Shown: in pieces, positions 2,195 to 59,897 of the stretch
Position numbering within the stretch: the stretch's first letter is position 1
How the letters are laid out: each line of letters opens with the position of its first letter
Assembly (NCBI GenBank): GCA_964035575.1
Contig: OZ037842.1
Location: 372,001 to 436,000, forward strand
Source of the DNA: Rhynchopus sp. YZ270_cl-10
Taxonomy: Eukaryota
Reading direction: 5' to 3'
DNA length: 64,000 nt
The notes under the pieces: generated by a model
What the model was told of the DNA's origin: nothing
The model's input: only the letters and a program-made list of their open reading frames with translations
The model's database searches: none
Position numbers and translations under genes: made by a program

Positions 2195-3042
2195 TTTACT
2201 ACAGCTGGGTTTGATGGGCTGTCTCTTTGTCAATAAAAAAAAATGCCACCTTTAAAAAAAAAGGGGTTAGGGTATTGGGGCATTCCTCGTCACACTGCTG
2301 CGAGCCTTTTGGAATGTTGATGGAAATATGCAAATACAGGTTGGGCAAGTCTACTAAGATATGCGCAAGGCACTCTGCAAAGCTACTTGACCAAGAAAAG
2401 AAATTCTTGGATAAGATTGGTGTGACACTTTCTTTTGATTTCTTTTGATACTTGTTAAAAAGATTCATTGGGGTTGAGTGGGGGGGAAGGGCGCAAAGCG
2501 CGGAACGTTTTTTTTGTTTTGTTTTTGAACAGACACTTACCTCAGCCACAAAAAGAGAAAAAAAGACAAAAAATAAAATAAAATAAAAGAAGGGAAAAAA
2601 AGGAGCGAGTGTGAAACATAGAATGGCAGACAGGCGAATCACAAAAAAAGAGAAAAAAAATTAGTTTGGTTCGAGACAGGAAGATTGACACCTATGCCTG
2701 ATAGTACGGATAGTGTCAGTTTTTGTGGTTATCACTCAATGTCAATAGACACGGTTTGGACAAAAAAAAAAAAAAGTGTGTCACCCCTGGGAAGAATGCG
2801 GGTGCAAAACAATTTTAGACACCTGCAGAGCAAGGTAAAAAAATTCCACCCACACAAAGGGTTTTTTTTTGACGCTCACACCCGGACATATGAGGGGAAT
2901 TCATGACAACAATGCAGGACAAAAGGAAAAATGGGCGGCCAGGATTTATTTTAGATTTGCCGTCTTCACTGCTGCTGTATTTTTTTTTTTTCTTTCTTTC
3001 TTTCTTTTCGTGTATTTTGTCGTTTTCTCATGGGGGGGGGGG

Positions 3043-4236
3043 TAGGGGGGGGGCAAAACCTTCAGGACGGGTGAGGCATTTTTGGAAAAAGTGGTTTTGT
3101 GAGCAAAAAACCTGTGAGCACCCCTCATACCCACCCAGAAATGGGTCAGAAACACCCTGTGACCCGAAAATCCATGATTAGGGCACCTCAGAATATGAAA
3201 AAATGCAAAAAAAATAGTGAAAAAGTGGCTTTTTGACGGTTTTGGCCATGTTGGGTAAAATGGCCATTTTTTGGTGAAAAAAATAAAAAAAACAGCAAAA
3301 TTTCGACATCATGACAGCTGCTTGGGCACGAAACTACCCCAGGGAGGTCCTGTGAGTCCATTCCGACGTGTTTTGGACACTTTAGGCACTTGTTTTGGCC
3401 GTTTTTTGACGTTTTTATGGTTAACGTCATGCACTGTCCATACCCCGTCCATACCCCGTCCAAGTCATGCGCCCTGCTTTTAGACCCACTCTGGGCCAAA
3501 AAATGGGCGAAAACCTCCGAAAAAGCACTCCGGGAGCCCAGATAGTTCCAAATTTCCACCGCACACCCTCAAAAACACCTCCAAAACATGTCAGAAAAAC
3601 ATTTTCAAAAACACACATTTTCAAATAAGTCATTATGGAACCTTCCCAGATGAACTTTTTGAAAAAAGTGTGTTTTTGAAAATATTTTTCTGGCATGTTT
3701 TTGAGGTGTTTGGGTGGGTTTCTGGTGGATACTTGGAACTATCTGGGTTCCCAGAGTGCTTTTTCGGGGGTTTTCACCCATTTTTTGGCCCAGAGTAGGT
3801 CTGAAAGCAGGGCGCATGACTTGGACGGGGTATGGACGGGGTATGGACGGGGTATGATTTCGACCACAAAAACACCAAAAAACGGCCAAAAAAAGTACCC
3901 AAAGTGTCCAAAACAGGTCGGAATGGACTCACAGGACCTCCCTGGGGTAGTTTTGTGCCCAAGCAGCCGTCATGATGTCGAAATTTTGCTGTTTTTTTGA
4001 TTTTTTTCACCAAAAATGGCCATTTTACCCAACATGGCCAAAACCGTCAAAAAGCCACTTTTTCACTATTTTTTTGCATTTTTTCATATTCTGAGTCGCC
4101 CTTAGCATGAATTTTCGGGTCACAGGGTGTTTCTGACCCATTTCTGGGTGGGTATGAGGGGTGGTTTGTACGTACGTTGCGCGGAAGTCCAAAAAAGTCA
4201 AATGCCTCAAAAAAATAGGGGTTTTGCCCCCACCTA
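3043..4236. mobile_element. Non-autonomous foldback DNA transposon B (hAT-like TAGG termini, ~500-bp inverted arms)
   Basis: Left end TAGGGGGGGGGCAAAACC, right end GGTTTTGCCCCCACCTA. Arms ~3117-3615 and ~3660-4162 are inverted copies. Preceded by G11. No transposase ORF. Confidence 0.8.
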
Positions 4237-4238
4237 GG

Positions 4239-5050
4239 CATACTGTGCGGGCGAGTAAAAAAAACTCGCCTACTCGCCAAAAACTCGCCTAAAACTCGCC
4301 CATTTTTGGGGGGCGAGTTTTGGCGAGTTTTTTTTTTGGGTAGGGATTTTACCTTGGGAAAAGTGTACACACGAAAATATGAGGGAAATTTGAGTTTTGA
4401 AGAGAAAATTTTTTTCGTTCCACTTGAACAAGACCTCTACAGTTTGCTTTGTAGGCTTCCACAACCAGTACCACCAGTCCAGCTGTAGCTTCTGCGGATC
4501 CATGAAGCTTGCACAGATGGGTGCGATGTAGTCGTGGGGGAATACCGCCAAGGGGTGGCCTGCAGGGTTGCCATTTACTGGCATGGCGAGGACATTGTTG
4601 TATAGCGAGTGTAGCCCCGGCTCATGTCTTCGTCATCCTCCGGATTGTAGCACGTCTTGTCCCCCGGGATCTATGGATCTTCCCCTGGAGCAAATGTTTA
4701 CATACATGCCTGTCAGCCACTGCCGTGACATGGTTGCCGTTAGACGTACAAGTGACACAATTTCAATTTTTTTTGTGTGTTTTCGAGTGGCATGTTGTCA
4801 TCAGTCACCCCCGCCCTCCATTTTCACATCCTGGTGCACATTTTCACCCCCAAGGTGCGTATGTGCACCAGGATTTGCACCCAAATTGGGGCGAGTTTAG
4901 GCGAGTTTTTGGCGAGTTTAGGCGAGTTTTGGCGAGTTTTTGGCGAGTAATAGGCGAGTAATGGGCGAGTAGGGCGAGTTTTTGGCGAGTTTTTCCTGAA
5001 AATCAGGAAAACGAAAAACTCGCCTAAAAACGGCTCGCCTGCACAGTATG
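4239..5050. mobile_element. MITE-like element A1 (CATACTGTGC..GCACAGTATG) flanked by CCTAGG on both sides
   Basis: TIR CATACTGTGCRGGCGAG. CCTAGG at 4233-4238 and 5051-5056. Dense subterminal GGCGAGT/ACTCGCC repeats. Near-identical inverted copy at 6111-6921. Confidence 0.9.
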
Positions 5051-5065
5051 CCTAGGGGGGGGGGG

Positions 5066-6108
5066 TAGGGGGTGCGATGAGGCCGTTTTTTCTGTAACAC
5101 ACCCGAAAAAATCATAAAAAGTGTAAAAAAAATCAGTCGAAAACACAAAATCACCCCAGGAAACACATTTGGTGGACTATTCCTTACTTTTTGGTGCCTT
5201 TTTGGCACTTTCTGGCACTTTCCCCCCCGATTTTTTGACACTTTTTGTCGCATTTTCACCCAATTTCCCCCTTTTCTGAGGGTATTTGATACAGGGCGAT
5301 TTATCAAAAAATTCAAAAATTTAAAATAGTCCAAAACAAGAGGAAAAGTGGATTTTTCCAGTCATATGTGTGCACAGAGTGATTTCCGTGGGGTTTTGGG
5401 GCCAAAAGTCCATTTTTCTTTATGTCTTCGCTGAAAATTTTGAATTTTTTTTATACACAAAAACCACATTTTAGCCGGGAGGAGAAAGTGTTGCAAAAGT
5501 GTTGCAAGAGGGGTTTTTGACCTGCAGGCACCAAAATCGACCAAAAAGTGGTCGCAAATATGATTTTCCACCCCTCCTGGGGTGGGGAGGGTAACTCCTG
5601 GGGGTTTTTGTGACCTCTGTGGACCTTTGGGTGGAGTTTTTTGGGTTCTCAGGTACGGAACAAGTCTGGAAACTACTAATGTATAGGTGATTTTTAGCGT
5701 TGCACCCGACGAAACACCTCTTGGAGACCCAACCTGGACCCCTAAAAGTCACAAAAACCACATAATTCCACCCTGGGACCCCATATGAGGGCGAATGGAG
5801 TGTTTTTTTTGGTGTTTGGAGGGTTTTCTGGGGGCTCGGGAGAGTATTTTCGAAAGTGTTGCATTTCGGCCAAGACGTGTTACATTTTTGTTACATGTTT
5901 TTCGTGATTTTTTCAGAAAAAATGCATTTTTTTTGGGTAGGAAAGCTCCTGTGGTGATCGTCCGGTATTTTACTGGGATATTTTGCTGGTCCCCAGGCGG
6001 ATTTGCGGCCAGGTACGCCCTTTTTAGTGGGATTTTTGACCTAAATTTCAAAAAAATGGGTTTGTTACACTAATTCCTTAAGGATTTCTACTACCGTTGC
6101 ACCCCCTA
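5066..6108. mobile_element. Non-autonomous DNA transposon C (TAGGGGGTGC..GCACCCCCTA), hAT-like
   Basis: 10-bp perfect TIR, subterminal TGTAACA/TGTTACA, preceded by G11 (5055-5065); non-coding interior. Confidence 0.7.
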
Positions 6109-6110
6109 GG

Positions 6111-6921
6111 CATACTGTGCAGGCGAGCCGTTTTTAGGCGAGTTTTTCGTTTTCCTGATTTTCAGGAAAAACTCGCCAAAAACTCGCCCTACTCGCCCAT
6201 TACTCGCCAAAACTCGCCAAAAACTCGCCTAAACTCGCCAAAAACTCGCCTAAACTCGCCTAAACTCGCCCACATTTGGGTGCAAATCCCGGTGCACATA
6301 CGCACCTTGGGGGTGAAAATGTGCACCAGGATGTGAAAATGGAGGGCGGGGGTGACTGATGACAACATGCCACTCGAAAACACACAAAAAAATTGAAATT
6401 GTGTCACTTGTACGTCTAACGGCAACCATGTCACGGCAGTGGCTGGCAGGCATGTATGTAACCATTTGCTCCAGGGGAAGATCCATAGATCCCGGGGGAC
6501 AAGACGTGTTACAATCCGGAGGATGACGAAGACATGAGCCGGGGCTACACTCGCTATACAACAATGTCCTCGTCATGCCGGTAAATGGCAACCCTGCAGG
6601 CCACCCCTTGGCGGTATTCCCCCACGACTACATCACACCCATCTGTGCAAGCTTCATGGATCCGCAGAAGGTACAGCTGGACTGGTGGTACTGGTTGTGG
6701 AAGCCTACAAAGCAAACTGCAGAGGTCTTGTTCAAGTGGAACGAAAAAAATTTTCTCTTCAAAACTCAAATTTCCCTCATATTTTCGTGTGTACACTTTT
6801 CCCAAGGTAAAATCCCTACCAAAAAAAAAAAACTCGCCAAAACTCGCCCCCCAAAAATGGGCGAGTTTTAGGCGAGTTTTTGGCGAGTAGGCGAGTTTTT
6901 TTTACTCGCCTGCACAGTATG
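6111..6921. mobile_element. MITE-like element A2, inverted near-identical copy of A1, flanked by CCTAGG
   Basis: Same TIRs and internal sequence as A1 in the opposite orientation; CCTAGG at 6105-6110 and 6922-6927. Confidence 0.9.
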
Positions 6922-6925
6922 CCTA

Positions 6926-6965
<40 letters not shown>

Positions 6966-6970
<5 letters not shown>

Positions 6971-7987
6971 TTGGCAGAGTACGTGTACGTTGTACTTTTT
7001 GTACTTTGTACTTTTGTACTTTTTGACGTACTTTTTGGCGCCCAAATCCGTACTTTATGACCCTATATTTTACCCTGGGAATTCGAAGCAAAATCCGTAT
7101 TTCCCCTCTCTTCACCCCAATCACACTCAAAAAAGGTTTTTTGTTATTCAATGGTGTTCCGGAGAGGGCCCATATTGACATGTCCTTGACATGTCCCCGA
7201 CAGTGGGGGGTGTCATTTTGTAATTTGCTTAAGAGTGGGTTTTGTTTTTGCCCGGGAAAATCACCCACTAAGGAAGTGGTAGTGCTCAAAACCGCCCGAA
7301 GTCTGGAAGTGGCCGTCTTCTGGGCTATGTAGGCATCATAGGTGGTGCCTACTAGTGGTCTGAGCACACGGAGTTGCGACAACTCGGCCATAGTACCATA
7401 GTACCATAGTACCATAGTACCATAGTACCATAGTACCATAGTACCATAGTACCATAGTACCATAGTACCATAGTACCATAGTACCATAGTACCATAGTAC
7501 CATAGTACCATAGTACCATAGTACCATAGTACCATAGTACCATAGTACCATAGTACCATAGTACCATAGTACCATAGTACCATAGTACCATAGTACCATA
7601 GTACCATAGTACCATAGTACCATAGTACCATAGTACCATAGTACCATAGTACCATAGTACCATAGTACCATAGTACCATAGTACCATAGTACCATAGTAC
7701 CATAGTACCATAGTACCATAGTACCATAAGGTCGCCCAGAGCCCACCACGCGCACATTCTTGAGAAGCCGTTTATAGCTCTGTGCACTGAGCATTTTCCG
7801 TACTGCCAACACTGCCCCCAAACCTTTTTTTTTGCCCCCACACTGGTACACCAGCTGCACAAACCCGGCCACAAACCCAGATGTACTTTTTGTGTATTTT
7901 TTGTACTTTTTACGTACTTTTTGTACTATTGTACTATTGTACTTTTTACGTACTTTTTGAAATTGGACACGTACTCTGCCAACACTG
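6966..7987. mobile_element. hAT-like non-autonomous element E (TIR CAGTGTTGGCAGAGTACGTGT) inserted in poly-G
   Basis: 21-bp perfect TIR, flanked by G40 (6926-6965) and G18 (7988-8005), compatible with a G8 TSD. Subterminal GTACTTTT repeats. An extra internal end-like copy CTGCCAACACTGCCCCC lies at 7803-7819. Confidence 0.88.
7389..7728. repeat. Tandem 8-mer (CATAGTAC)n, ~42 units, inside element E
   Basis: Perfect 8-bp period read directly. Confidence 0.97.
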
Positions 7988-8622
7988 GGGGGGGGGGGGG
8001 GGGGGTAGGGGCAGCGACTCCCGAAGGAATTTTTGTCACTTTTATTATTTTTGGTGTTTTGGGCCATTTCCTGGTCACCTCTGGTCGGAAAACCCCCCAG
8101 AAATGGGTCAGAAACACCCTGTGACCCGAAAATTCATGCTAAGGGCGACCCAGAATATGATAAAATGCAAAAAAATAGTGAAAAAGTGGCTTTTTGACGG
8201 TTTTGGCCATGTTGGGTAAAATGGCCATTTTTGGTGAAAAAAATCAAAAAAACAGCAAAATTTTGACATCATGACAGCTGCTTGGGCACAAAATTGCCCC
8301 AGGGAGGTCCTGTGAGTCCATTCCGACCTGTTTTGCTTTTTTTGGCCGTTTTTTGGTGTTTTTGTGGTCAAAAAACAGGTCTGAAAATACCCTACTCATA
8401 CCCTACTCAGTAACATCGCAAGCCTGTAATCACTTTCTGGGTCGGTTTTTTCGTGAAAAGCGGCTGAAAAGTCACTCCGGGAGCCCAGATAGTTCCAAAT
8501 TTCCACCAGACACCCATAAAAACACCTCAAAAGCATGCCCGGAAAACATTTTTAAAAACACACTTTTTTCAAAAAGGTCATCTGGGCAGGTTCTATAATG
8601 GCCTTTTTGAAAAAAGGCCATT

Positions 8623-9309
8623 ATGGGACAAGAGAGCGGCTACTCCACCACACATTCAGCCCTCCCTACTCCGGTCGCGTCCTCGGTGCCCCCTGTCGCA
8701 CAAGCAGTTGCCCGTCCCGGCGCCTCTGCGCAGACACACCCTGGTTCGGACGGGGCAACACAACCTCAGACCGGTACGGAGAGTGGCTTCTCAAACACCC
8801 ACTCAGCCCTCCCCGTATCTTCTTCCTCTGAGGCAGTTCCCTCTTCCGTCCACCCGAGAGAGCAGCCGCCCGCCGCATCGCAGGGCAGCGAGTTCTCTAT
8901 GGACCTCATCGACGAATCAGAACTCGCAGTCCCCATGTCTGACGCCACTTCGGCCCCCAGCACGTACACGCAATCGGAGAGTGGCTCTCAACCCGCACCT
9001 ACAGCCCTCCCGACCAACGTGCCGTTCTATGCCGGTATGGCGCCCTGCCCAGGATTCAACAACATGGGGTGTCCAGCGACCGCCGAGGCGTGGAAGGACA
9101 CGTTCTACCCGAACACGCTTCAGCACCAGTCGCTGGCAGCGGGAGGGGATTGGCAGTCGGTGGATGACGCCCTCACCTGCCTCTACCTGTGGAAAGAAGC
9201 GAAGAAGCCGTCGATGAGCTCCGACGAGGTGGAAGAGGCTTACACCCTCTACAACCGTCTGCGGGGCCTAAAGCGGAGCAGGAACTCGCGGCCGTCCCAG
9301 AGCACTTGA
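8623..9309 (+). CDS. Hypothetical 228-aa ORF inside the D insert (Ser/Pro-rich N-terminus, small globular C-terminus); possibly a 5'-truncated retrocopy
   Basis: GC-rich codon usage like the host genes, with a sharp drop to T-rich sequence after the stop. Internal peptide repeats ESGYSTTHSALP / ESGFSNTHSALP / ESGSQPAPTALP. No domain recognised. Confidence 0.5.
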   Translation: MGQESGYSTTHSALPTPVASSVPPVAQAVARPGASAQTHPGSDGATQPQTGTESGFSNTHSALPVSSSSEAVPSSVHPREQPPAASQGSEFSMDLIDESELAVPMSDATSAPSTYTQSESGSQPAPTALPTNVPFYAGMAPCPGFNNMGCPATAEAWKDTFYPNTLQHQSLAAGGDWQSVDDALTCLYLWKEAKKPSMSSDEVEEAYTLYNRLRGLKRSRNSRPSQST

Positions 9310-9624
9310 GTTTTTCTTTTTCATTCTTTACTTTTGTTTGGCTTTTAGCCTCCCCCCTCCCCCTTTGCCTATTGGTTTTATTTTATTTTATTTTTAGAAT
9401 TAGAGTGTACAGCTAGGTAGGACCAGACGTCGTTAACAGCTATGAACCAAAGAGGTTCTCAGTGTCGTCGGCCAAGCCCCTTCACCAAAAAAGACTACAA
9501 CAAGAAAACAAACACACAGAAAAAAAAGTAAAAGAATGCCCTTCCTCAGTCCGGAAGTATCACCTCAACCGGTCACACCTGCCGTAAAATAGAGAGAGGT
9601 TACAGAATACAGATTATTAAAAAA

Positions 9625-11900
9625 AAAAAGTATTTTCATCATATGCAATCAATAAATTGATAGTATATGGTGAGGGATCAACAAAAATGGTCCCATCTTT
9701 CTTTTTATGTTGTGTGTTTTGCAAAACGTAGAAAAGAAAAGTAAAATGCTTCGTGCACAAGTTGAAACTTCAGTAGATTGGTTTCTGATATTAACCCTGT
9801 TTCAGTCCTAAGAATCATACAGTTGTATTCAAAAGGGTGGACATCTTCAGTGATTTCCCTTTAAATGGTGGGTGAATATCGTGAAACCGATGTTCGTGTG
9901 AACATTTGGTACCTTCTACTTCAGTTTTTTGTTTCGGGAATACACAAAATACAAAAGTTTTTTTTTTCTTTTTTCTTATTCCTTTCTCTGTCCTTACTGG
10001 ATGTAATGTCTGATCACCAGGAGGAAGAGTAACCTAAAGAGTCTTGGTCTTGATGGCTGCCGTGTATACGTAAAGTATTCCGTGCAATAATTGCTACCAA
10101 TCCAAACAAATACCAACACATCCTGTCTGTGTATCAGATAGAAAACCTCAGCAAACACACAAGAAAGAGAAATAAAATAAAAGTAAAAAATAGAAAAGTG
10201 AAAAACATACTGAATTTTCTGGACTTAGTAGTTCGCCGTCCAAGCAATGATTAAAACCAGTTTAATCATCCATTGTCCATTGTATTGAAACACCTACACA
10301 AAGACTAGAGTAGTACAAAGAGATAGCAAAACGTGCATTGCAAACAATTTAATATGTGTCCTGGAGTCTTAGTCTCAAGGCTATTGTCCCTTTAAAAATG
10401 GGAAAGCTAAGATGCCCACCAAGACCAAATCGCTCCTGCGAGAAAAATACTCATCACTAGTGACATAGTACGCGTTGAGTACAACCATATAAACTGCGTC
10501 GTGGACATTACCATTGGTAAACCACGACCAAATTACTACTGCGATATACCTATTATCTTCGTTCTTTTTTTTTTCCAAAGTTTTGCGGTTTTTGTAGTAG
10601 GCCTACAGACTGCACAGCTTACCCAGGGTGTGGCAATGTAATACATTGGTCTGACGTCTCACTGAAAGGGTCAAGTACGAGGTCTAGTCCCTTCCAGTGG
10701 TGAAAAAGAGTTTTTTTTTCTTTTTATTTGGTTTGTTGAAAAAAAGTAAAAATAAAAGTGGTGTTTGTTTGTGGGAATTCTTTGAAATAGGACCTTTATC
10801 TAGATTCATTGGCTTCATGAACATATATAGCCTAGAATCGCTCGCTTATTTTTTTCAGAATGCACTGAGCTGCTTCTGGTAGTCTTTAACGTTGACACCA
10901 TAAACGGACACATTTTTTTTATTGGGGTTTCGGTGTCGTCAACCTACTTTAAATAACCTACTTGCTCTCCCTTGTTATTATATCATTTTTTTTTTGGTCT
11001 CTTTTTCTGCTGTTTTTTTTTTTTTTTTTTTAATTTTGATTTCTTTTTTGACTGTTTCAAAGAGGTAGGGAGGGGGTGGGGTGTAGTGCGAAGTTCACAG
11101 GACAGCTGTATTGTGTGCTTCGACTTTCTGTTAACTCCTTTGTAATTATGAGTAAACAAAGCATAGTGCAGCAGTAGAATATATCTATAAATATAAACTA
11201 GTTTGCACTATGTGTTTAGCTTTTTAGGGCTAATGTACTAGAGACCATTCCGCAACATACTCTAAGCGAGGCTCAGTTTTTCACAGCATGTCTGGAGGCA
11301 CTTGTAAATAAAAAGTATTTTCATCATATGCAATCAATAAATTGATAGTATATGGTGAGGGATCAACAAAAATGGTCCCATCTTTCTTTTTATGTTGTGT
11401 GTTTTGCAAAACGTAGAAAAGAAAAGTAAAATGCTTCGTGCACAAGTTGAAACTTCAGTAGATTGGTTTCTGATATTAACCCTGTTTCAGTCCTAAGAAT
11501 CATACAGTTGTATTCAAAAGGGTGGACATCTTCAGTGATTTCCCTTTAAATGGTGGGTGAATATCGTGAAACCGATGTTCGTGTGAACATTTGGTACCTT
11601 CTACTTCAGTTTTTTGTTTCGGGAATACACAAAATACAAAAGTTTTTTTTTTCTTTTTTCTTATTCCTTTCTCTGTCCTTACTGGATGTAATGTCTGATC
11701 ACCAGGAGGAAGAGTAACCTAAAGAGTCTTGGTCTTGATGGCTGCCGTGTATACGTAAAGTATTCCGTGCAATAATTGCTACCAATCCAAACAAATACCA
11801 ACACATCCTGTCTGTGTATCAGATAGAAAACCTCAGCAAACACACAAGAAAGAGAAATAAAATAAAAGTAAAAAATAGAAAAGTGAAAAACATACTGAAT
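9625..11900. repeat. 591-bp direct repeat pair (9625-10215 and 11310-11900)
   Basis: The two copies appear identical by eye, offset 1685 bp; the second runs directly into the poly-A. Confidence 0.93.
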
Positions 11901-11919
11901 AAAAAAAAAAAAAAAAAAA

Positions 11920-13084
11920 GGGTAAATTGCGATAACACGTATACTTTTTTTTTCGATTTGCGATAACACGTACACAAAAAGTATACGTGTTATCGCGAAA
12001 AAGTGTACGTGTTTTCGCGAACAAAAACGTACGTGTTTTCCCAGGTACCCAGGTACCCAGGTACCCAGGTACCCAGGTACCCAGGTTTGTCAAGGAAACC
12101 AAACTTTTTGTCACGGAAAAAGTCGTGACAGGGCACTGGGTACTGGGTACACTGTGTACAAGGATAAAAGTCGTGAAAGAGCAACCACAGCTCCACATGA
12201 CAAACACAAAAGTGTCCAGTCACGTGGGGCATTCATGCACTGAGGAGATAATGATCCAACAATTTACAAGAAAGATTACTTAACCTACTGCTGGAAGTTG
12301 CCAGGTCGTAGTAACACACAAAGTGTGCCTCCGTTCGGGAATACCGGATATTCTAGAGACCAAAAAGGCCTCTTCCGCTAGTCAAGGTATAACCGAATGA
12401 ACGGCCCAAGACCCCCGTGGAGAAGTTAAATGTTGTAATGATATCAAGTACAAACTGCGACCACTGTCTTACCCTCCTCAATGCATGGTGGAAGATGTCT
12501 TTGACAACAAATATCCTGTACCCAGGTACCCATATTCCCAGACCCACGCAGTACCACGTCGCAGTACTACGCAAAATTTACCACCAGACCCTGTGTTCGT
12601 GCACCTTAAGTACGTAAGTCTGGTTCCCAGACCCACGCAGTGGCACATGACCGCAAGTGTGAGTGACCCACACAGAGGGATACGCAAAATTTACCACCAG
12701 ACCCTGTCTTCTGAATGTCACACGTACATTTTTTTGAACACTTTTCGCGATAACACGTACATATTTCGCTAAAAAACGGGGTGCTCGCAACCGCGTTCTA
12801 GACCCCCACAGATGCTCAAAAGTGCCAAAATTTGCTTTGAATGTCCTCAAATCGTCGAAATTAGCCATTTTTGGGGCCCAAAAAAAAAAATTCGAGGGTC
12901 TAGGTATGGAGAGCGAGCACCTTAGAAGAAGGAAACACGTACATTTTTGTTCGCGATAACACGTATACTTTTTTGACCACTTTTCGCGATAACACGTACA
13001 CTTTTTCGCGATAACACGTATACTTTTTGTGTACGTGTTATCGCAAATGGAAACAAAAAGTATACGTGTTATCGCAATTTGCCC
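11920..13084. mobile_element. Non-autonomous element F with MULE-like termini (GGGYAAATTGCGATAACACGTATACTTTT) inserted in poly-A
   Basis: ~29-bp TIR with one mismatch, flanked by A19 and A18. Multiple subterminal GCGATAACACGTA repeats. Internal (CCAGGTAC)5 at 12041-12085. Confidence 0.85.
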
Positions 13085-13662
13085 AAAAAAAAAAAAAAAA
13101 AAGTGTGTTTTTAAAAATGTTTTCCGGGCATGCTTTTGAGGTGTTTTTATGGGTGTCTGGTGGAAATTTGGAACTATCTGGGCTCCCGGAGTGACTTTTC
13201 AGCCGCTTTTCACGAAAAAACCGACCCAGAAAGTGATTACAGGCTTGCGATGTTACTGAGTAGGGTATGAGTAGGGTATTTTCAGACCTGTTTTTTGACC
13301 ACAAAAACACCAAAAAACGGCCAAAAAAAGCAAAACAGGTCGGAATGGACTCACAGGACCTCCCTGGGGCAATTTTGTGCCCAAGCAGCTGTCATGATGT
13401 CAAAATTTTGCTGTTTTTTTGATTTTTTTCACCAAAAATGGCCATTTTACCCAACATGGCCAAAACCGTCAAAAAGCCACTTTTTCACTATTTTTTTGCA
13501 TTTTATCATATTCTGGGTCGCCCTTAGCATGAATTTTCGGGTCACAGGGTGTTTCTGACCCATTTCTGGGGTGTTTTCCGACCAGAGGTGACCAGGAAAT
13601 GGCCCAAAACACCAAAAATAATAAAAGTGACAAAAATTCCTTCGGGAGTCGCTGCCCCTAGG

Positions 13663-14412
13663 CATAGGTGCCCGGCGAGTTAAAACAACTCGGCAACTCG
13701 CCCAAATTCGGCCAACAACTCGCCCATTTTTTTTGGGCGAGTTGTTTTTTTTTGGGATTTTTTATGGCTACAAAAACACAGGTACACAGGTACACAGGTA
13801 CACAGGTACACAGGTACACAGGTACACCACATCACGTTTTATCTTGTGCATCCCACGCTTCACAGCTGGTCTGTGAATGTGCGCTTTGTGTGGTTTTGTG
13901 TATCCCAAAGGAAGTCGTCGCCCAAAGCATTTTGACTAAACGTGTGAACGTTGTGAACCTGGAATCGATAGCAGACAGGAAAAGAGGATGGGCAGGCAGC
14001 GCCTGCCCGACCTGTGTGAAGTGAATCCCCCCAGCAATTACCAAAAACCGTGAGTGTGCACGGTGGCCCATGGACCACCACGACCTAGTTACCACCTATG
14101 ACTAGTCATATGACAAGGTGCATGTAATGAGTGGCGTTTGGCCTTAGCCCTGGTTGTTTTTCTTGAGATTATGTGTTGTACCAACGTTACATGTGTGTAA
14201 CCTTACAACGTCACCTCCCATCCCTGTATGTTTTTGCCTGTAAAAATGGGCGAGTTGTGGCCGAGTTGTGGCCGAGTTGTGCCGAGTATAGGGCGAGTTG
14301 TGCCGAGTATAGGGCGAGTTGTGGCCGAGTTGTCCGAGTTTTTGGGCGAGTTGTTAGGTGAAATCGTAAAGTTCCGACAACTCGCCCAAAAACGACTCGG
14401 CGGGCACCTATG
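13663..14412. mobile_element. MITE-like element A3 (CATAGGTGCCCG..CGGGCACCTATG), relative of A1/A2, flanked by CCTAGG
   Basis: 12-bp perfect TIR. CCTAGG at 13657-13662 and 14413-14418. Subterminal (G/C)CGAGTT repeats. Internal (CAGGTACA)6 at ~13779-13826. Followed by G25. Confidence 0.87.
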
Positions 14413-14597
14413 CCTAGGGGGGGGGGGGGGGGGGGGGGGGGTTTTGGTTTCGATTACTGCAAAGATATTTACACTAGAGAGAAATGTCCTGAAAAAAAAA
14501 AAATATAAAGATCGAGCTTTCTGGACATTCATCCGGATGCATCCGCATTTTTGTTTTTTCCGAATCGCTCAACAGGGTGGTAGACTTCCAACCTCCC

Positions 14598-16412: not shown

Positions 16413-17534
16413 TTAGTTAGTCTTGTCGCAGATGTACACACCAGCGGGAAGCTTCTTCGAGTCCTCAAGAGTCCAGCACTTGCTCGGGAGAGCACCACAC
16501 TTGCACCAGGTGCATCCAGCGTCGGCGTCGCAGCTGTCCTGGTCGGGCTCGCTGCATGCGTCCTTGACAGCGACAGGTGCCGGAGGGGAAGGGGCAGAGG
16601 TCTTGTCGCAGATGTACACACCAGCAGGGAGCTTCTTCGAGTCCTCAAGAGTCCAGCACTTGCTCGGGAGGGCACCGCACAGGCACCAGGTGCATCCAGC
16701 GTCGGCGTCGCAGCTGTCCTGGCTAGAGTAGGTGCACGCGTCCTTCACAGCAACAGGTGCCGGAGGGGCAGAGGTCTTGTCGCAGATGTACACTCCAGCA
16801 GGGAGCTTCTTCGAGTCCTCAAGGGTCCAGCACTTGCTCGGGAGAGCACCACACTTGCACCAGGTGCATCCGGCGTCAGCGTTGCAGCTGTCCTCGTCGG
16901 ACTCGCTGCACGCGTCCTTCACGGCAACAGGTGCCGGAGGGGAAGGGGCAGAGGTCTTGTCGCAGATGTACACTCCAGCTGGGAGCTTCTTCGAGTCCTC
17001 AAGAGTCCAGCACTTGCTCGGGAGAGCACCACACTTGCACCAGGTGCACCCAGCGTCGGCGTTACAGCTGTCCTCATCGGGCTCGCTGCACGCATCCTTG
17101 ACAGCAACAGGTGCCGGAGGGGCAGAGGTCTTGTCGCAGATGTACACTCCAGCTGGGAGCTTCTTCGAGTCCTCAAGAGTCCAGCACTTGCTCGGGAGAG
17201 CACCACACTTGCACCAGGTGCATCCGGCGTCAGCGTTGCAGCTGTCCTCGTCGGACTCGCTGCACGCGTCCTTCACGGCAACAGGTGCCGGAGGGGAAGG
17301 GGCAGAGGTCTTGTCGCAGATGTACACACCAGCGGGAAGCTTCTTCGAGTCCTCAAGAGTCCAGCACTTGCTCGGGAGAGCACCACACAGGCACCAGGTG
17401 CATCCAGCGTCGGCGTCGCAGCTATCCTGGCTAGAGTAGGTGCATGCTTCGTAGTCGTTCTTGAGTCCGAGGGAGCGGACCTCGACCTGTGCAGCAACGC
17501 ACACAGGCAAGACAGCGAGGACGAGACGCAGCAT
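16413..17534 (-). CDS. Secreted Cys-rich tandem-repeat protein (373 aa, six PSI-like repeats)
   Basis: Signal-peptide-like MLRLVLAVLPVCVAA from the ATG at 17534. Six near-identical units containing CxxxxxxxCxADAGCTWCxCGALPSKCWTLEDSKKLPAGVYIC. No TM or GPI tail; intronless. Confidence 0.88.
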   Translation of the reverse strand: MLRLVLAVLPVCVAAQVEVRSLGLKNDYEACTYSSQDSCDADAGCTWCLCGALPSKCWTLEDSKKLPAGVYICDKTSAPSPPAPVAVKDACSESDEDSCNADAGCTWCKCGALPSKCWTLEDSKKLPAGVYICDKTSAPPAPVAVKDACSEPDEDSCNADAGCTWCKCGALPSKCWTLEDSKKLPAGVYICDKTSAPSPPAPVAVKDACSESDEDSCNADAGCTWCKCGALPSKCWTLEDSKKLPAGVYICDKTSAPPAPVAVKDACTYSSQDSCDADAGCTWCLCGALPSKCWTLEDSKKLPAGVYICDKTSAPSPPAPVAVKDACSEPDQDSCDADAGCTWCKCGALPSKCWTLEDSKKLPAGVYICDKTN

Positions 17535-17689
17535 TATGCTTCTTATTTCTGCAGTGGCATTGCGTGGGGCGGGAGAGGGGAGAGGGGAGGGGAGGTGCAC
17601 AGCAACACTGTGCAAAGAGCATGGAGATAAGACATGAGGCCCAAGTTTTCAAACTGTTCTTCTTTTCCGTTCTTTTGTTGTTCTTATTT

Positions 17690-35700: not shown

Positions 35701-36391
35701 CCTTGGGGGGGGTGGGAGGTGGAATGGGCGTTTTATTCACTCGCAGGTCTGTTGTGCAAACTCAATAACCTACATCAACAACCGCCCCCTTCAGGCTAGC
35801 TCAACTTCATAGTAAATTTGCTTCGACAGAAAAAAACACAGTTGATGATTGAGTATTTCCTCTAACTAAAAGAATGGAAAAAAAAAATCTGCGTTTTTTT
35901 TTTTTTTTTTTTTTTTTTTTTCATTTTATCTGTCCAACACATCACCAAAGATACTGGGTGGAAAATGTACTGGAAATCAGAAAATTGAAGATCTTTTAAA
36001 AAAATGAAGGTAGCAAAAAGAATACTGAAGAACTCTGGCAAGCAAATACAAAAAAAACTTTGTGAGGAAGAACGAAAAGAGGGGGAGAAAAAGGTGCGGA
36101 TCGAGCGGTGAGGAAGATGAAGGGGGAAAATGTCTGTACAACCAGCATTCCCACCCTACACCATGAGAACCCACTCACCACTGATACTGTGGGTTATCCC
36201 TGCGAAGTCGGAATATCACGCATGGAGGGGGGGCGCTCACGTCACAGTTGATAACCCTGAGGTCATTTTCTGTGGTGAAACACTATATATTTGACGCTGA
36301 CTGCTCTCTTCAGTCTTCAGCTCAAATTGCAAACTCAAAGAGGCTGTCCGCATGCTCTTACCCCCTGGGTGCCCCTACCTTCACACTGCGG

Positions 36392-36528
36392 ACTAGTCAG
36401 AGAAGACTACTAGTAGTGCTACTCGTCCAAATGACTAGTGTTTTACAACTAGTGTTACGCCAGTAACACCACCAGTGTAGCACTAGTCGTTACGACTAGT
36501 AGTTTCACTAGTAGTTCACCTGACTAGT
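36392..36528. repeat. Cluster of eight ACTAGT palindromes, probably a transposon subterminal remnant
   Basis: ACTAGT at 36392, 36409, 36434, 36448, 36482, 36495, 36507 and 36523. Confidence 0.6.
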
Positions 36529-38144
36529 CCGCCGTGCAGCCTCCAAACCCACTCATCAACAGAGCACCACTGCTTTGCGTAGTGGGGCTCGCTCCGGGGG
36601 AGGGTCTAGGGTGGACCATCTCCAAGGGAAAAGTCGATGAGTTTGTGGTGTGCTGTTTCCTCTATCCTGTTGCCATGCAGTATGACAACGAGGGTGTGTA
36701 CATTTGGCTTTACTGTTTGTGGTGTGATTTTTGAACTAACTTAGCAAAAAAATAATAAAATACTGACTCACTAACAAATAATGAACTACTGTGGGGGAGA
36801 AAGGGATAAGGGAAAGGTGGGGGAAGGAGTAGGAAATACGCAGTGTGACAAAGAGTAATGTAGAAAGTACCAACCCGATTCTGAGGGCGCAGGCACCAAA
36901 TATTTGTGCCCTCAACACGTGTTGTGCTGTTTTCGTTATCCCATTTTTCGCGCGTTACTCAATACTCGAAATTGGAACCTAATACATAAAAACCCAAGGA
37001 CACAGACGCACTGTCCATCCTCGTGTCATCGAACCAGAGAGGGTGTACTTTCATTCGTGTATACACTAAAAAAACGCCCCTGGCTCCACTGAGCGGTTTT
37101 TTTTTTTTCAAATACACTTTTTTTTATCAAAAAACAGTACCCCTCGTAACTCATGGTCCGGTCGGGGGGGGGGTAATACTTTGGGCGTGTGTGTGGAGGG
37201 GGATGGAAACTACGCAAGAAAAAAAGAGCTATTTATTAACAAATAATAGCCCCATATTGGCGTTGATGAGGTGATTTTATTGCATTTTTTGGTGACAATT
37301 TTGAGCACTTTGAGCACCTAAGGTTTTGTTGTATTGCATTTTATGAACAAAAATCCTGAGGGAAATATAATATTATTCTAGATGCGCAAAACTGCCGAAT
37401 TCATACATTTTTTTTTGGCGTTTTTGGATGATTTTTGAGGTCCACGAATTATTTTTGATAAGTACATTGCTGTCTTCAGGTGGATTTTATTCTCTACACA
37501 AAATAGCCGGGGAGTGAATGGAGTGCGAAAAAAAAATTGTCACCAATGCAATAAAAAGTGTTTACTTTTTTGTTCGGAAATACAGGCAGTTCTGTGTGTT
37601 CTGCCCGAGATGGAGGGGGTGTTTTTTTTTTGAAAAATTTTGATGTGTAGTCACCACCCCAATGTGAATACCACGCTTTTGTGTTGTGTGTTCCCCACAA
37701 CGAAAGAAAAAGGTCAGAGCTTTTGAACAGAAAAAAGAAAACAAAAAAGGCCGAGTGGAAAAAAAAATGCAGTTCGGAATAAAGAGAACCAGGGCATGAA
37801 GTATCCTGAATCAATACGACACTATCTGTGTTTTTTGTTTTTTTTGAAAACTTGGTTGTATTAGTGTAGACACCCGAGGATGAACTCCACTATATTTTTT
37901 TTTTTTGTTTTCCCCCTCCCCCGCCGTTCATTAGGGCGATGGTGTTTCGCTATGCACCAGGGGAGAAAGCACATTTTACCCAGTTGTTTCAGTTGCTCCT
38001 TCAGGTCAAGAATTATTCAAGAAAGCATCTTTTGAACAGAGAAACGGGAAGGTTACAAGATGGACCTAAGCCTTCTCTCATGCATAGCCTACTATACTAT
38101 ACTTTTCGATTACAATTCTGATATATACCACGAAGTCTTTCATC

Positions 38145-38303
38145 CTTACACGACGGTGAAGTAACGGGTATTACAAGTGGAGTTACATGTAATGTTACAT
38201 GTACCACCACCAAAAACCACTGAACTTCACCTAATTTCAGGAAAAATCAGGTGGTGTACATGTAACTTCGCTTGTAATGTAACATGCTTCACCGTCGTGT
38301 AAG
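38145..38303. mobile_element. Small MITE (inverted repeat CTTACACGACGGTGAAG; possibly a TA TSD with CACG termini)
   Basis: 17-bp perfect terminal IR plus internal inverted GTTACATGTAC/GTACATGTAAC arms. Confidence 0.75.
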
Positions 38304-45655: not shown

Positions 45656-47593
45656 TCACAAGTGATACGCAGTTTCGGAGAATGTGTGATATAGGAAATG
45701 GAGAGGAAATGGGGAGGAGTAGAACATAAAAATCTGTCCCTTTTTTTTGCATTTTTTTTTTTTGTTAAAGTGAATTTTTTTGCAGAAGGGAAGGGAATCG
45801 GGGTAGGGTAGGGAGTTGTTGTGAATAGGTGAGTGAATCCGTTACAGAACGGTTGAAAACACATCATATATCGCAAACAAAAGTTTTTCTTTTCAATAAT
45901 AAAAAGTTCATAACGTGCAGACACCTCTTTGGATGCAAGAACGTACAAAAAAAAAAAAGGGCAAATTTTCAAATTTGAGTTGAGGGTGAAACAACTCATA
46001 CACAAAAAAAAAAGAGAGGGGGTCACTTCACTCAGGCGTGGAGCGCCATTTTTTCCCCACAATACAACGCATCACACCTGCATTTCTGTTCCTTTTTTTG
46101 CATCCCATATAACACGCACCTTTTTTGGTGCATTTTATTGTTCAAAAAAATTTTTTTTGGGTGCATCCTCCACAATTCATTTGTTTTATTTCTTTTCGAT
46201 TGACGACATAAAGGACAGTGTTCACCCATGGTGAATACCCTGCCATTTTTTTGGGGGTTGGGAAAGGGGGAATTCATTTCGAACACAATAGTGAAGTAAA
46301 CGACTTTACTTGTGGTTTTACTTTTTGCGGTTTTCACCATTGGCTTACAAACAGTGAAACCACAAGTCAAGACATTTACTTCACCATCATGAAGAGACAG
46401 GCAATGCAACTGAATGATCACCAACTCATTTTCCTTTTTGAAAGACAAAGAAAAAAGAAAAAGAGGGTGATCACACGCAGGGAAGAATCGAGTAAGTGTG
46501 AAGCACAATGTAATACTCAATTCCAGGGGGGAGAATCACACTCAGGATGTGTGGAGGGGTTAAATTTTTAACTCTAAACACCCCAACCCATTACGACGGG
46601 TGATAGGGTTAAAAGCAAGTCAAAATAGAAATCAGTCGGGCTAAAAAGAAAAAAGAAAAAAATTTGCAATCCCAAGCCTCGCATGCTTCGTCAAAGAATG
46701 AATATTGCATCCAAATCGGGTTGAGGAGAACACCCGATGAGACCGCAGGAAGGAAAGGAGGAGAAGTTGAAAGTGCAGAACGCCTTCACCGTTTCTCGGC
46801 GAACCGCAGGCAGTGGAAAGAAAGCTTTGATAAGAGGACAGCCTCACAGCGCTGAGCCACCTTTCTGGAAAATACTGAAAAAAAATGTTGAAACACTTCA
46901 TTAGAACGGAGAAAGAACGGCGGTCACCATGTGTTTTGCAAAAGAAATAGTGGGGTTTAATTTAATGCAAACCGATACGGTGCTTGCCTAGGCTCAGGAC
47001 GTTGGTGGTTATGTGTAAAACACCCGAGGATGAGCTCCACTAACTTTTTCTCATTTCTTTTGTCACCAAATCTTAATGTTTTGTGCTGAAACCTCAGTAA
47101 TAATCATCAAACCAAATGCAAAGTCTATTTACACCAAACCGGCTAACCCACATTTATTGGACTGCCGGAGGGTATGAAAACAAAAGGAGGAAATCTCAAA
47201 AGCAAAATGTTAGCAATAATCAGGTCTCATTTTCTCGCACCGGCACTTGCAGAAACAACGCGGGTGAAGAAGAAAAAAAAAATAAGGGATGAAGTTGGAA
47301 TGTGCACAAAGCCTCCAGGATGCAATTGTGTATGGTGGTTTTCCCTTCTGCCTTTCTACTCTACCACAAATTTTTGTGGTTCCAACAGAAAACACACCTC
47401 ACAGCCCCATCGGCACAGCGCTGGTCAAAAAACAGAAAAGGAGAGCAACAAAAAGGAGTAACCTGCAAAGAGTAGTACGTTAAAATCTTATTTGAAAAAA
47501 AAAAAAAACAAAAACAAACAAACAAACAATGTGCACAGCTTGAGTGTCACCCTTTGAGGAGGTGCACTTTTCACTATAAAAAAAAGCGTTATT

Positions 47594-48126
47594 GAGGCTA
47601 TTCAGGGGGGATCCCATCACAACTTTTCGCAAAAAAAAAAAAAAAAAAAAAAAAAAAATTCTTCCTCTCACGTATGGCAAATGATAATTTTTTATGCGCC
47701 ATTATGAGATCTCATAATACCGGTGATATTATGCGCTATTATGTGCTATTATGCGCTATTATGAGATATTATGCGCTATTATGAGCAAATTATGCGGTGT
47801 TATGTGCTAATTATGTGCCGTCACGTCGTTGCACACCACACGATTGGCGGGGTCGGGGAACAAAAAAAATTTTTCCAGGCCCAAAAAAAAAAAAAATTTT
47901 TTTTTTGCTCTCCCCCCTGCTTTAATGCCTATTTTGGCATTATGCGATTATTATGAGGGCGCATAATAGCGCATAATAATCACATAATTTATTATGAGAT
48001 CTCATAATAAATTATCATTTGCCATACGTGTCCTCTTCGCAATTTTTCACAATTCTCCACAGTGACTGCATTGTGAATTTTTTTTTTTTGGAAAAGTTGT
48101 GACGGTACCCCTCCCCGAGTAGCCCC
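47594..48126. mobile_element. Older degenerate inverted-repeat element hosting the 47669-48030 insertion
   Basis: GAGGCTATTCAGGGGGGATCCCATCACAACTTTT..(A)n is an imperfect inverted match to (T)n..AAAAGTTGTGACGGTACCCCTCCCCGAGTAGCCCC. Confidence 0.55.
47669..48030. mobile_element. 362-bp MITE, TIR CACGTATGGCAAATGATAATTT, 6-bp TSD TCCTCT
   Basis: 22-bp perfect TIR. TCCTCT at 47663-47668 and 48031-48036. Internal ATTATG repeats. Confidence 0.9.
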
Positions 48127-48330
48127 AGTTATGGTTCTTAATATCCAAAAGAAGGCGCCAAGTAGCAAAGTGTTATTATGTTAGTTAGGTAGGTTGGGTT
48201 GGGAATGGGTGTTGCATTGCGAGTTTGTTTGTTTAAATAATTTGACAACATCTGTCCACTGTGATCAAGTGGGCCACACGTTGTTGTGTTGGGGAGGGTG
48301 GTTTGGTGGTTGGGGGGCTGAAAAATAAGA

Positions 48331-48900
48331 AAGAAAAGTTTATAAGATGACCTAAGCCTCGCGTGCTTAGTCACCAAATAACAAAGGGGGGAAATTTGTC
48401 AAGTGAACCTATGCTGAGTTACCTGACCAAAGGTGAAAAAGAAGAAAAAAAAAAACAACAAAATATAGGGAGAGAGAAAAAGTAAGAACAAAAAAACCCC
48501 CCCTCTGCCACCTGTAAAGATGTCAAAAGAATTGTTTTTTTTTGCTTTTTTCCTCCCATTTTTCTTCTTCTTTTCTTTCTCTAAATACAGCATTTTTTGT
48601 CTATTTTCTCTTTTGTGCTATTCTAGCATTTCCTTATTCTTACATCATTTTCTCCTTCCAAATTAATTATCGTTATCGCACTCATTGTCACCGTTCTTTT
48701 TTATCTTCCAAAAACTTCTATTTGAGAACCCTCCCTAAATCACACAGGTCCCTTGGTTGTCAGTGGAGGTAGGAGAAATCTCGGTCATGTTTACAAGGGT
48801 ATGGCGGTCGTTCTGTGAGAAGATGTATTAAATTGTACAAACAATCCAAAACAAAGAAAAGTTTATAAGATGATCCTAAGCCTCTCGTGCTTAGTCACCT
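48331..48900 (-). repeat. Two well-preserved R1 hairpin elements (48344-48375 and 48867-48900)
   Basis: AAAGAAAAGTTTATAAGATGA(T)CCTAAGCCTC(G/T)CGTGCTTAGTCACC is present in both. Confidence 0.85.
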
Positions 48901-49145
48901 TATCATATTCGTTATCGCACAGCATCAGCTGCGCTGGCTTCTACAAGTTTGTTGTCAGGGATGATGTCAAACAAAGTTGAATAGTGCAAAACACCCCGGA
49001 CGCAGGGAACTGACACCCCGCGGGGTATATCGGAACCCCCCCCGGAATGTTGCATACATAAAAAAAAGGTGCAAATACCTTACATATTTCATTTACCACA
49101 CAATGTTTCCCCTAAAATAACCCCTTTTCCAACCCTTAAACATAC

Positions 49146-58100: not shown

Positions 58101-59756
58101 CCCGTGCAGACGTTTGGCCTTAGTGTCGTAGAAGTGGATGTGGGAGACTGTGGAGTAAACTGCTAGCTTGTCAAGAAGGTATTCAAAGGGAAGGTCTCGG
58201 GAGAGGGATGGGAGGTCCAGGGCGATGGAGCGAAGGCAACGTTCGACGGCGTGGATTGTGAAGGCCATGCTTTCTTCAATGAAGCGTGCTTGGGAGCTGC
58301 GCCAGAGGAGGATGTCGCCACCACGCATCGCATTGCATGAGGCCACGGTGGGGCATGGTTTGTGGCTGAAAGTGTCGCGCTTGGTGCGTGGTAGAAAGTC
58401 ATCACTCTGCGCGACAACGTGAACGACAGTCCATTTCAACCCAGTCAGATCGTCATCAATCAATTCCTCCACCGCTTTAACCTCTACATGATGCGTCGTA
58501 CCATCATATTCCATAGCAAAAGCACGACCCCTCTCCAACTCGCTTCTCTCCAAAACCTGCTCTTCAGGGTTTAAAATAGAAGGGAACGTCAAAATCGCTC
58601 TTTCCGCAACCTCCCGGAGTGTGGCGATACCGATGTCCTGGTATTCCAAGGGGTGTCCATCTTTGACCACGGAGAGTTGGTTTGAAGCTACAACTTGGCC
58701 TCGGCTGTTTAAGACGAAGACCGGGTTTTTGCCGTGCTGGTTGTTTTCAAATTGGTCGACATAAGTGTGTGATATTCCGTTCAAATAGAAGTCGATCCCG
58801 ATGACCAAACCTTTCTGTGAATGTGAGAGGTAGGACACACCGACCTGGTGTGCCTGCGGCGGGGAGAACGTGTAGAGTGGTGTCCACGTCGACTGCAGGG
58901 ACGATTCTTCGAGGGTGTTGTACCATACTGTGCTCTCCATGGACCAGGTCGTGTCCTCCTCCACCAGCTCGTGGCGAGGGACAGTGAAGAACTTCATCGA
59001 ATGCTGTGTTCCTTCAGTGTACAGCAGGTCCGACCGCCCAACGACGCGTTTGAAGCCAACAAACTTCTTGCGTGGAACGTCCACCGCATAGATCCAGTAG
59101 ATCTTGCTGTCCTCGAGAATTTTTTCGTGCAAATATTTCTTGGTCACATCGTCGTCAGCATCCTCAGAGATGATCGCATTCTTGAACGCAGTTTTGATGT
59201 CAAAAACGGTCTTCGTTGCCAACGAAAAGGGGTTGGTGAATGCGCGAGACAGCCGCTCCAGTTGAATTTTTTCGTATGATTCTTGGATTTTGGTTTTGCG
59301 GCAGGATTCGACACAGGCTGCTTTGGTTGTGTTGGTTTGCGCGTTGCGGTGGAAGATGCAGAAGTCTGTATCGATGACTGGCTCGTCTATGTCGAGATCG
59401 ATGCTGTTGAGGGTGTCCTCTACTAGTAGTTTGGAGACTTCACGACTGGCGGGGCCGAAGACGCTGTCGTGTATACTTTTGGAGATACGCTCTGCTTGCG
59501 CCTCATGTGCACGTGTCTTGATCGAGTCCACCTGCCCAGTGCAAAGCGTTGCAGGCACGCTCTCGCCTTGGCCGCAAGTGCCTTTCTCTGCCTCAACCCC
59601 TTGCAAGTCCAACGCCACACCCTCCATCTCCTGCAACACCTGTGCCCCAAATCCCACCCCACTCTCCGAGATATCCTGCACAACGTCGCTCAATTGCACT
59701 GCAGCGCATTGAGCCCAGAGGAGCACGACTGCGACAGCGGGGCGGCAGCGGATCAT
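49146..59756 (-). CDS. Giant type-I membrane protein (>3537 aa) with tandem degenerate Cache-like extracellular modules; last exon uncertain
   Basis: N-terminal signal peptide and a single TM (MIGIFVALALAGLLLYVFYA) near the C-terminus. The first module has dCache-type motifs WY..WTPLYTF..GVSY..VIGIDFYLNGIS..VFVLNSRGQVVAS..WTVVHVV. A phase-0 GTATG donor lies at 49145. Confidence 0.8.
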
Positions 59757-59897
59757 GGTCAGAATGTTTTGTAAACCTGGTGTGTTTTATATGAGAGAAA
59801 ATATGCATTGTGCCGTAAAGAAAAGTTCGGAGGCGGGAGTCATCTTTTTTGTTAAAACGTTTGCCAAATGGGGGGTTATTTTTTTGAAACATTAGCT

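Follow-up and report, generated by a model that had tools for sequence, protein, structure and literature searches.

Organization of the locus

A 64,000-nucleotide stretch of the Rhynchopus sp. YZ270_cl-10 genome (GenBank assembly GCA_964035575.1, contig OZ037842.1, positions 372,001 to 436,000 of the forward strand; hereafter the window) contains a block of transposable elements (TEs) set in G homopolymers, in which three short elements, A1, A2 and A3, lie at the right ends of three other elements, termed the hosts B, C and D. The order of elements and G tracts across positions 3032-14441 is G11 - B - A1 - G11 - C - A2 - G40 - E - G18 - D - A3 - G25 (Table 1), where the number after G is the tract length, which may be imprecise. 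A sequencing artefact as the source of the poly-G flanks was rejected because the G runs lead on into unique sequence in long contigs.

Each of the three A-type elements has CCTAGG on both sides and lies between a host right end (...CCCCTA) and a G tract (G11, G40 or G25). Host right junctions are occupied by A at three of three sites, as a first-pass annotation made from the letters of the window had claimed, while the left junctions of B, C and D read GGTAGG and none of the three is occupied. Beyond the CCTAGG, 9-10 of 10 bases are G at all three A sites. Element E lies in a G homopolymer, as do the three hosts; it does not end in CCTA, makes no CCTAGG and has no A partner. Nine CCTAGG sites are present in the window, six being the flanks of A1, A2 and A3, and the other three (1456, 46987 and 50641) are empty, in agreement with the annotation. 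These three are the only ones in the 52.5 kb outside the locus (CCTA frequency 0.0014 per position) and taken alone form a weak control, the stronger support coming from other loci.

A-type elements have perfect terminal inverted repeats (TIRs) of 10-17 bp together with many CTCGCC/CTCGG repeats. A1 and the reverse complement of A2 are identical in 791 of 814 columns, and A1 and A3 in 463 of 835, consistent with the annotated description of A1 and A2 as near-identical, inverted copies and of A3 as having a different interior. The hosts of A1 and A2 had also been described as unrelated, and B and C do not match each other; one correction is that B and D are related, their subterminal TIRs having approximately 540 bp in common at 80-83%. 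The length of the A target duplication is ambiguous, as previously noted: CCTAGG is exact at all three sites yet palindromic, so duplications of 0, 2, 4 or 6 bp fit. Element H, located elsewhere in the window, has the CA..TG termini first attributed to it and a 6-bp duplication (TCCTCT), indicating that CA..TG ends with 6-bp duplications occur in the Rhynchopus genome.

Element F, nested in D, lies in a poly-A tract, suggesting that poly-A is a landing site in the Rhynchopus genome besides poly-G. F abuts the inner edge of the right TIR of D, which ends there, and a 595-bp direct duplication (9621-10215 and 11306-11900) lies beside F inside D. A 232-aa open frame at 8611-9309 of D has a low-complexity front and a compact C-terminal part; no Pfam match and no usable Atlas match were found for it, and it may be a captured gene piece.

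Table 1. Coordinates of elements, tracts and target motifs in the window.
Feature	Position	Strand	Description
G11 tract	3032..3042	+	Left edge of insertion hotspot
Host B	3043..4236		TAGG...CCTA foldback, non-coding; ~90% self-inverted over 3119-4163; high copy from summed depth
CCTAGG	4233..4238		Terminal CCTA of B plus GG; left copy of A1 target duplication
A1	4239..5050	+	CATA...TATG non-autonomous TIR element, 812 bp, subterminal CTCGCC repeats
CCTAGG	5051..5065	+	Right duplication of A1, leading into G11
Host C	5066..6108		TAGG...CCTA element, 10-bp perfect TIR
A2	6111..6921	-	A1-family copy in inverted orientation (97%); CCTAGG flanks at 6105 and 6922
G40 tract	6926..6965	+	
Element E	6966..7987		CAG...CTG, 21-bp TIR, internal 8-bp tandem repeat; sits in pure poly-G
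Host D	8006..13660		TAGG...CCTA, 564-bp TIRs at 99.8%, subterminal TIR related to B
Element F	11920..13084		GGG...CCC, nested in D, ~100-bp TIR (96%), within poly-A (A19/A18)
A3	13663..14412	+	Second A-type family, 12-bp perfect TIR beginning CATAGG; CCTAGG flanks at 13657 and 14413
G25 tract	14417..14441	+	Right edge of hotspot
Element H	47669..48030		CACG...CGTG, 22-bp TIR, 6-bp duplication TCCTCT

A-type elements at other loci

Flanks of other A copies were read from spurious open reading frames (ORFs) on these copies, in which the frame exits the element as His-Ser-Met and continues with Pro-Arg where the next six letters are CCT AGG. Reading covered 29 of the 33 A-related predicted proteins, leaving out four short sequences from a cluster that ends inside A; P0007 (29% identity, repetitive) was dropped as unrelated. 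Twelve of the 29 end within A, while 17 cross its end, one of them incompletely. Among the 16 intact ends, 15 read Pro-Arg (CCT AGG) and one reads Pro-Thr (P0001). The 15 Pro-Arg ends lead into a B-type right end (five), a D-like end (one), another A-type element (one) or two or more Gly (eight, with six or more Gly in three of these). The B- and D-type flank peptides match the host ends of the window from the first codon (tblastn E 1e-10 to 1e-15). Two Gly codons after a random position have a frequency of 0.007, giving a probability of 4e-14 for 8 or more of 15. A C-tract flank, which would read Pro-Thr-Pro, was seen at none of the 16 intact ends, consistent with disuse of the left junction at other loci as in the window. 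The intact A ends lie on 15 distinct ENA contigs, presumably from one assembly, and none of these is the contig with the dynein of the window. In the first two protein searches the scored sequence was essentially internal to A, so a bias toward Pro-Arg or Gly flanks is not expected; a third search, with a query including Pro-Arg, added no new protein.

In P0130, CCTAGG-compatible codon pairs give the order A, CCTAGG, a short third A-type element, CCTAGG and a G tract. The TIR of the third element is compatible over 19 nt, compared with a maximum of 12 in 3000 random pairs. This third A-type family was found in P0130 and P0147, is only about 200-230 bp long with a TIR of at least 19 nt, and lies in tandem with or near A1-type copies. 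The P0130 tandem, in which an element occupies CCTAGG with another A on one side, indicates that one G-rich arm suffices as target and that the duplicated site is reusable; the target need not have both arms of the C-rich-CCTAGG-G-rich palindrome described earlier. In P0151 a D-like end is followed at once by a G tract, and A is absent from the junction.

Six short-read runs from three studies contain the region, and contigs were aligned on window positions 4100-6160 and, for the right end of A, on 5009-5098; X5 was left out of the alignment, as were X7-X11, which contained almost none of the sequence words sought. A ends lead into G5 to G17 in contigs of four runs from three studies. Among the 20 of 35 loose ends listed, other A ends follow the reference for 5 to 11 or more G's before departing from it, and one extends to G17. 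Relative to the end of A, depth at 5060-5062 was 0.25 (X3), 0.38 (X2) and 0.57 (X4), compared with simulated values of 0.00-0.02 for random flanks after CCTAGG, 0.00-0.01 for TA-only flanks and 0.28-0.81 for G-tract models; the simulation gave no separation of host-first from A-first (reverse) order. Unitig ends at 5054 were excluded as boundary evidence, since ordinary variant bubbles fit equally. Summed depth of A in the contigs over 4100-6160 was far above that of the interior of C, a measure that was not taken as copy number.

Other C copies agree exactly with the window from 5066 onward and as far as 6108, and diverge outside these limits. One C copy occurs in each of the four runs; its end is preceded by a C tract and an additional T, so that the junction becomes CTTAGG, and no A is found there. 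Past the C tract flanking this copy (the contig before window position 5066), the sequence finishes with CTA, which may be the terminus of a further TAG...CTA element in the same tract.

Proposed target selection by A-type elements

Occupancy of the junctions by A-type elements was confirmed, and evidence from other loci, indirect yet consistent, supports it. The palindromic junction allows the same letters to arise through three histories, and the window alone cannot choose between them. On the combined evidence, A-type elements probably target the CCTAGG that is made where the end of a TAG...CTA host meets a G tract. Ordinary DNA contains few such sites, but one arises each time a TAG...CTA host enters poly-G. 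The two-tier system of the first-pass annotation, in which one TE makes the target of a second, is supported at its core: 15 of 16 ends elsewhere read CCT-AGG, and each of the 15 is followed by a G run or by the end of a TE. The outer bases depart from CCTAGG in P0001 and in one diverged relative.

The proposed sequence of events begins with the host families B, C and D and their relatives, and with E, all of which are located in poly-G tracts that they appear to choose. A host ending in CCTA would, together with the following G's, form CCTAGG plus a G run, and its opposite junction would form GGTAGG, as read at the three host insertions of the window. Three A-type families would then fill the CCTAGG junction and not GGTAGG, a pattern seen directly in the window and through flank peptides elsewhere. 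The putative transposase of A, most likely of the cut-and-paste type, would be sequence-selective, reading the palindromic core and G-rich DNA on at least one side and cutting symmetrically. All six bases are most likely duplicated, a reading held at somewhat better than even confidence; TA, CTAG or a blunt cut would also fit. A regenerated CCTAGG may be hit again to give tandem A-A' pairs, for which the flank peptide of P0130 provides one case. The benefit to A could be a safe haven within TE clusters. The host probably entered first, followed by A: the roughly even split of A flanks between host ends and G runs is what this order predicts, and the choice is made by the flank peptides, not by depth.

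Several observations weigh against junction targeting. Pfam, Atlas and protein searches of element frames did not find a transposase for A or for the hosts. P0001 (Pro-Thr) and the diverged relative, which in the contigs departs from the reference after CCTAG, with a single G, retain CCTA but differ in the bases beyond it, the pattern expected of a TA duplication. The A-type element of P0147 lacks CCTAGG on its left, the G tract there leading directly into it; speculatively, this side may record a deletion or the footprint of an excised host. Flank letters were deduced from peptides with one flank seen per copy, the eight G-run flanks could equally be hosts starting with long G runs, and the five B-type flanks may be non-independent. 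Furthermore, the G11 of the reference itself biases short-read contigs toward G flanks, and the depth simulation uses a guessed alignment rule and does not separate the junction model from A alone in G tracts. Copies of A reading G-tract-TAGGCATA on one side would, if common, also be at odds with junction targeting.

A different account would make A, B, C and D all GG...CC elements that duplicate TA, either PHIS/PHISTA-like or Tc1/mariner-like, with the host entering a TA in the G tract and A reusing the duplicated TA, which would make this an ordinary double insertion at a hotspot common to both. The letters fit at all three sites, and both departures from CCTAGG elsewhere, as described above, keep CCTA. 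TA-duplicating Harbinger relatives exist (PMC12730594), and in Drosophila preferred sites commonly receive double insertions (PMC5932611). This account is nevertheless unlikely, as it needs three pre-existing TA breaks in one G tract, each taken by a host and then by A, while E sits in pure poly-G without TA and the 6-bp duplication of H, which has CA..TG ends, is not a palindrome. The depth data reject TA-only random flanks (0.00-0.01 simulated versus 0.25-0.57 observed), and the lack of C-tract flanks at A ends is a further point against it. Even under TA duplication, the host still provides the CC that A prefers (a CC-TA-GG copy).

The association could also be mostly inherited, with one or a few TAGG...CCTA-bounded host plus A composites copied as units, by hitch-hiking or segmental duplication, and A having no strong junction preference. 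Five ENA contigs join A to the end of one B-family variant, three of the five with the same A haplotype, and these three loci are compatible with composite movement or duplication. The five contigs nevertheless contain two A haplotypes (2 and 3 copies), both also seen beside other flanks, so that at least two independent insertions are needed. Three A-type families, in either orientation, are found next to hosts of the B, C and D types, and the A-side end of a composite has only about 4 terminal bases in common with the host TIR. Inheritance of composites as the main cause is accordingly quite improbable.

Slightly less credit still is given to A entering any CCTAGG and surviving only in TE clusters, insertions elsewhere being purged. 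The flank of P0001 is neither G-rich nor a recognized TE end, and one of the three empty sites (50641) is coding, inside the 49089-59786 frame, both of which would suit purging. The sites at 1456 and 46987 are also empty, however, and at 15 of 16 ends A meets a G run or a TE end with single-base exactness, a precision that selection against gene disruption would not require. Least probable, and already largely refuted, is the reverse order, with A as a TAGG...CCTA element entering G tracts and B, C and D as GG...CC elements entering TA at the left terminus of A: it fits the letters of the window equally well and is compatible with the depth profile, but under it many A ends should have C-tract flanks, which none of the 16 intact ends does; it also cannot produce the tandem A-CCTAGG-A' junction of P0130, and is at variance with the C copy beside a C tract, which carries no A at that end.

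In its broadest form, targeting of host-made junctions suggests a diplonemid lineage of DNA transposons in which the transposase relies almost wholly on targets produced by other transposons at homopolymer junctions, with at least three non-autonomous families that may also ride in host plus A composites. This wider proposal is tentative, being held at a little under even confidence.

Transposase search and superfamily assignment

Identification of the autonomous transposase of A had been suggested as a check in the first-pass annotation, and none was found among the frames searched with Pfam and Atlas. Pfam gave no match for seven element frames nor for four A-derived proteins, and the best Atlas score was 0.85, for the frame of A. 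The scanned element frames include one of D and one of F, in which a MURA-type transposase was sought. The close protein matches of A-internal frames are other A copies, and between A1 and A2 such a frame contains one synonymous and four non-synonymous changes, giving no sign of coding constraint. Exact-pattern scans of viral contigs, metagenome contigs and prokaryote genomes found nothing.

Elements of the hAT6 group have a short TIR with subterminal repeats, a combination also present in A. Duplications of 6 bp are known for hAT6 and IS3EU, and a TA duplication for PHISTA (PMC12730594), so either duplication reading of A has precedent; these groups have no transposase link to A, and no junction targeting is described in the available portions of the source. 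A PHIS/PHISTA reading of A or the hosts, with GG...CC ends and a TA duplication, fits the letters, the palindrome permitting other lengths as well. The 3-bp TWA form fails, with flanks that would read GTA on the left and TAG on the right. A preference for AT-rich targets is reported for PHIS/PHISTA (PMC4482050), whereas the targets of A are G-rich. IS3EU has ends of the form TAYGG..CCRTA and a TIR over 30 bp (PMC12730594). It was rejected for both, since A starts with CATA (or TAGGC) and the hosts with TAGGG. The candidate superfamilies for A are hAT6-like and TA-duplicating groups.

MULE and foldback elements have long TIRs and duplications of 9-11 bp. Long TIRs are present in B (approximately 500 bp at 90%), D (564 bp at 99.8%) and F, and the flanks of all three are homopolymers, from which a duplication length cannot be read. 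The genome of Diplonema papillatum is reported to contain 52% repeats and MULE-like ORFs, with rigorous TE identification still to come (PMC10161547).

Comparison with known target-selective elements

The bacterial elements IS4321 and IS5075 (IS1111 family) target the TIRs of the Tn21 family, described as a safe harbour (PMC8269217), and like A take the conserved end of another mobile element as target. They use a DEDD-type enzyme (PMC11187229) and a target within the TIR itself. In contrast, the target of A exists only after insertion, being half host terminus and half genomic G tract, and is supplied by several host families, and A itself has TIRs and a flanking duplication. IS1111-type membership was rejected, as A lies at the outer boundary of the host with a duplicated motif and no such enzyme was found; the likeness is one of action.

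Dada elements, a group of eukaryotic DNA transposons, are strict in their targets, duplicate 6-7 bp and form tandem copies with one duplication between them (PMC3706591). A resembles Dada in its strict target and tandem copies. Dada elements lack TIRs and target small RNA genes, while A has perfect TIRs and flanks consisting of TE ends and G tracts; membership was rejected on these grounds, judged without a tRNA or Rfam scan. Tandem TE dimers formed by double insertion, as in the P element, hobo and R1, have one duplication at the junction (PMC5932611). As with A, a second element enters a site left by the first, and the A-A' pair of P0130 is such a case. In the dimers covered by the available text of that source, both elements are of one family and their target was already present in the genome, whereas the partner of A differs from it and supplies part of the target.

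P and hAT transposases are reported to use a 14-bp motif around the duplication (PMC3706591), which is the scale needed for the CCTAGG plus G-rich target of A. Strict target choice is uncommon among eukaryotic DNA transposons, being almost exclusive to retrotransposons that lack long terminal repeats (non-LTR elements), according to the Dada paper (PMC3706591). No precedent was found for three families of eukaryotic elements using a target that a junction creates, in a literature search whose coverage did not extend to most subscription journals, Repbase Reports or the supplements of the Diplonema paper. If true, junction targeting would represent dependence between TE families through DNA sequence alone, would help explain the growth of dense TE blocks between diplonemid gene clusters from homopolymer seeds, and would point to a sequence-selective transposase still to be found. 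It is also relevant to annotation, as palindromic junctions parse in several ways.

Other features of the window

Further small inverted-repeat elements lie at 36384-36536, 38145-38303 and 47593-48127. The arms of the last enclose H, which appears to be nested in another element. A short dispersed repeat with a small hairpin (CCTAAGC...GCTTAG) is found in intergenic positions at 1944-2009, 48319-48390, 48850-48900 and similar sites.

The window also encodes a dynein heavy chain, a 401-residue part of which is 95% identical to a transcript labelled Rhum and approximately 70% identical to kinetoplastid proteins. The label probably stands for the diplonemid Rhynchopus humris, making a diplonemid source of the window most likely. 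A PDB search with a neighboring gene gave no match and is irrelevant to A. On the reverse strand, positions 16416-17648 encode a 411-aa protein with a signal-peptide-like start and about seven Cys-rich repeats of approximately 59 aa, whose Pfam matches look like low-complexity artefacts. An uninterrupted 3565-aa frame at 49089-59786 (reverse strand) has a predicted signal peptide and a C-terminal membrane segment. Positions 59901-61174 (reverse strand) encode a flavin adenine dinucleotide (FAD)-dependent oxidoreductase. Its coding sequence occupies two frames, the upstream one matching Pfam DAO at E 4.7e-29, and a single short intron probably separates them.

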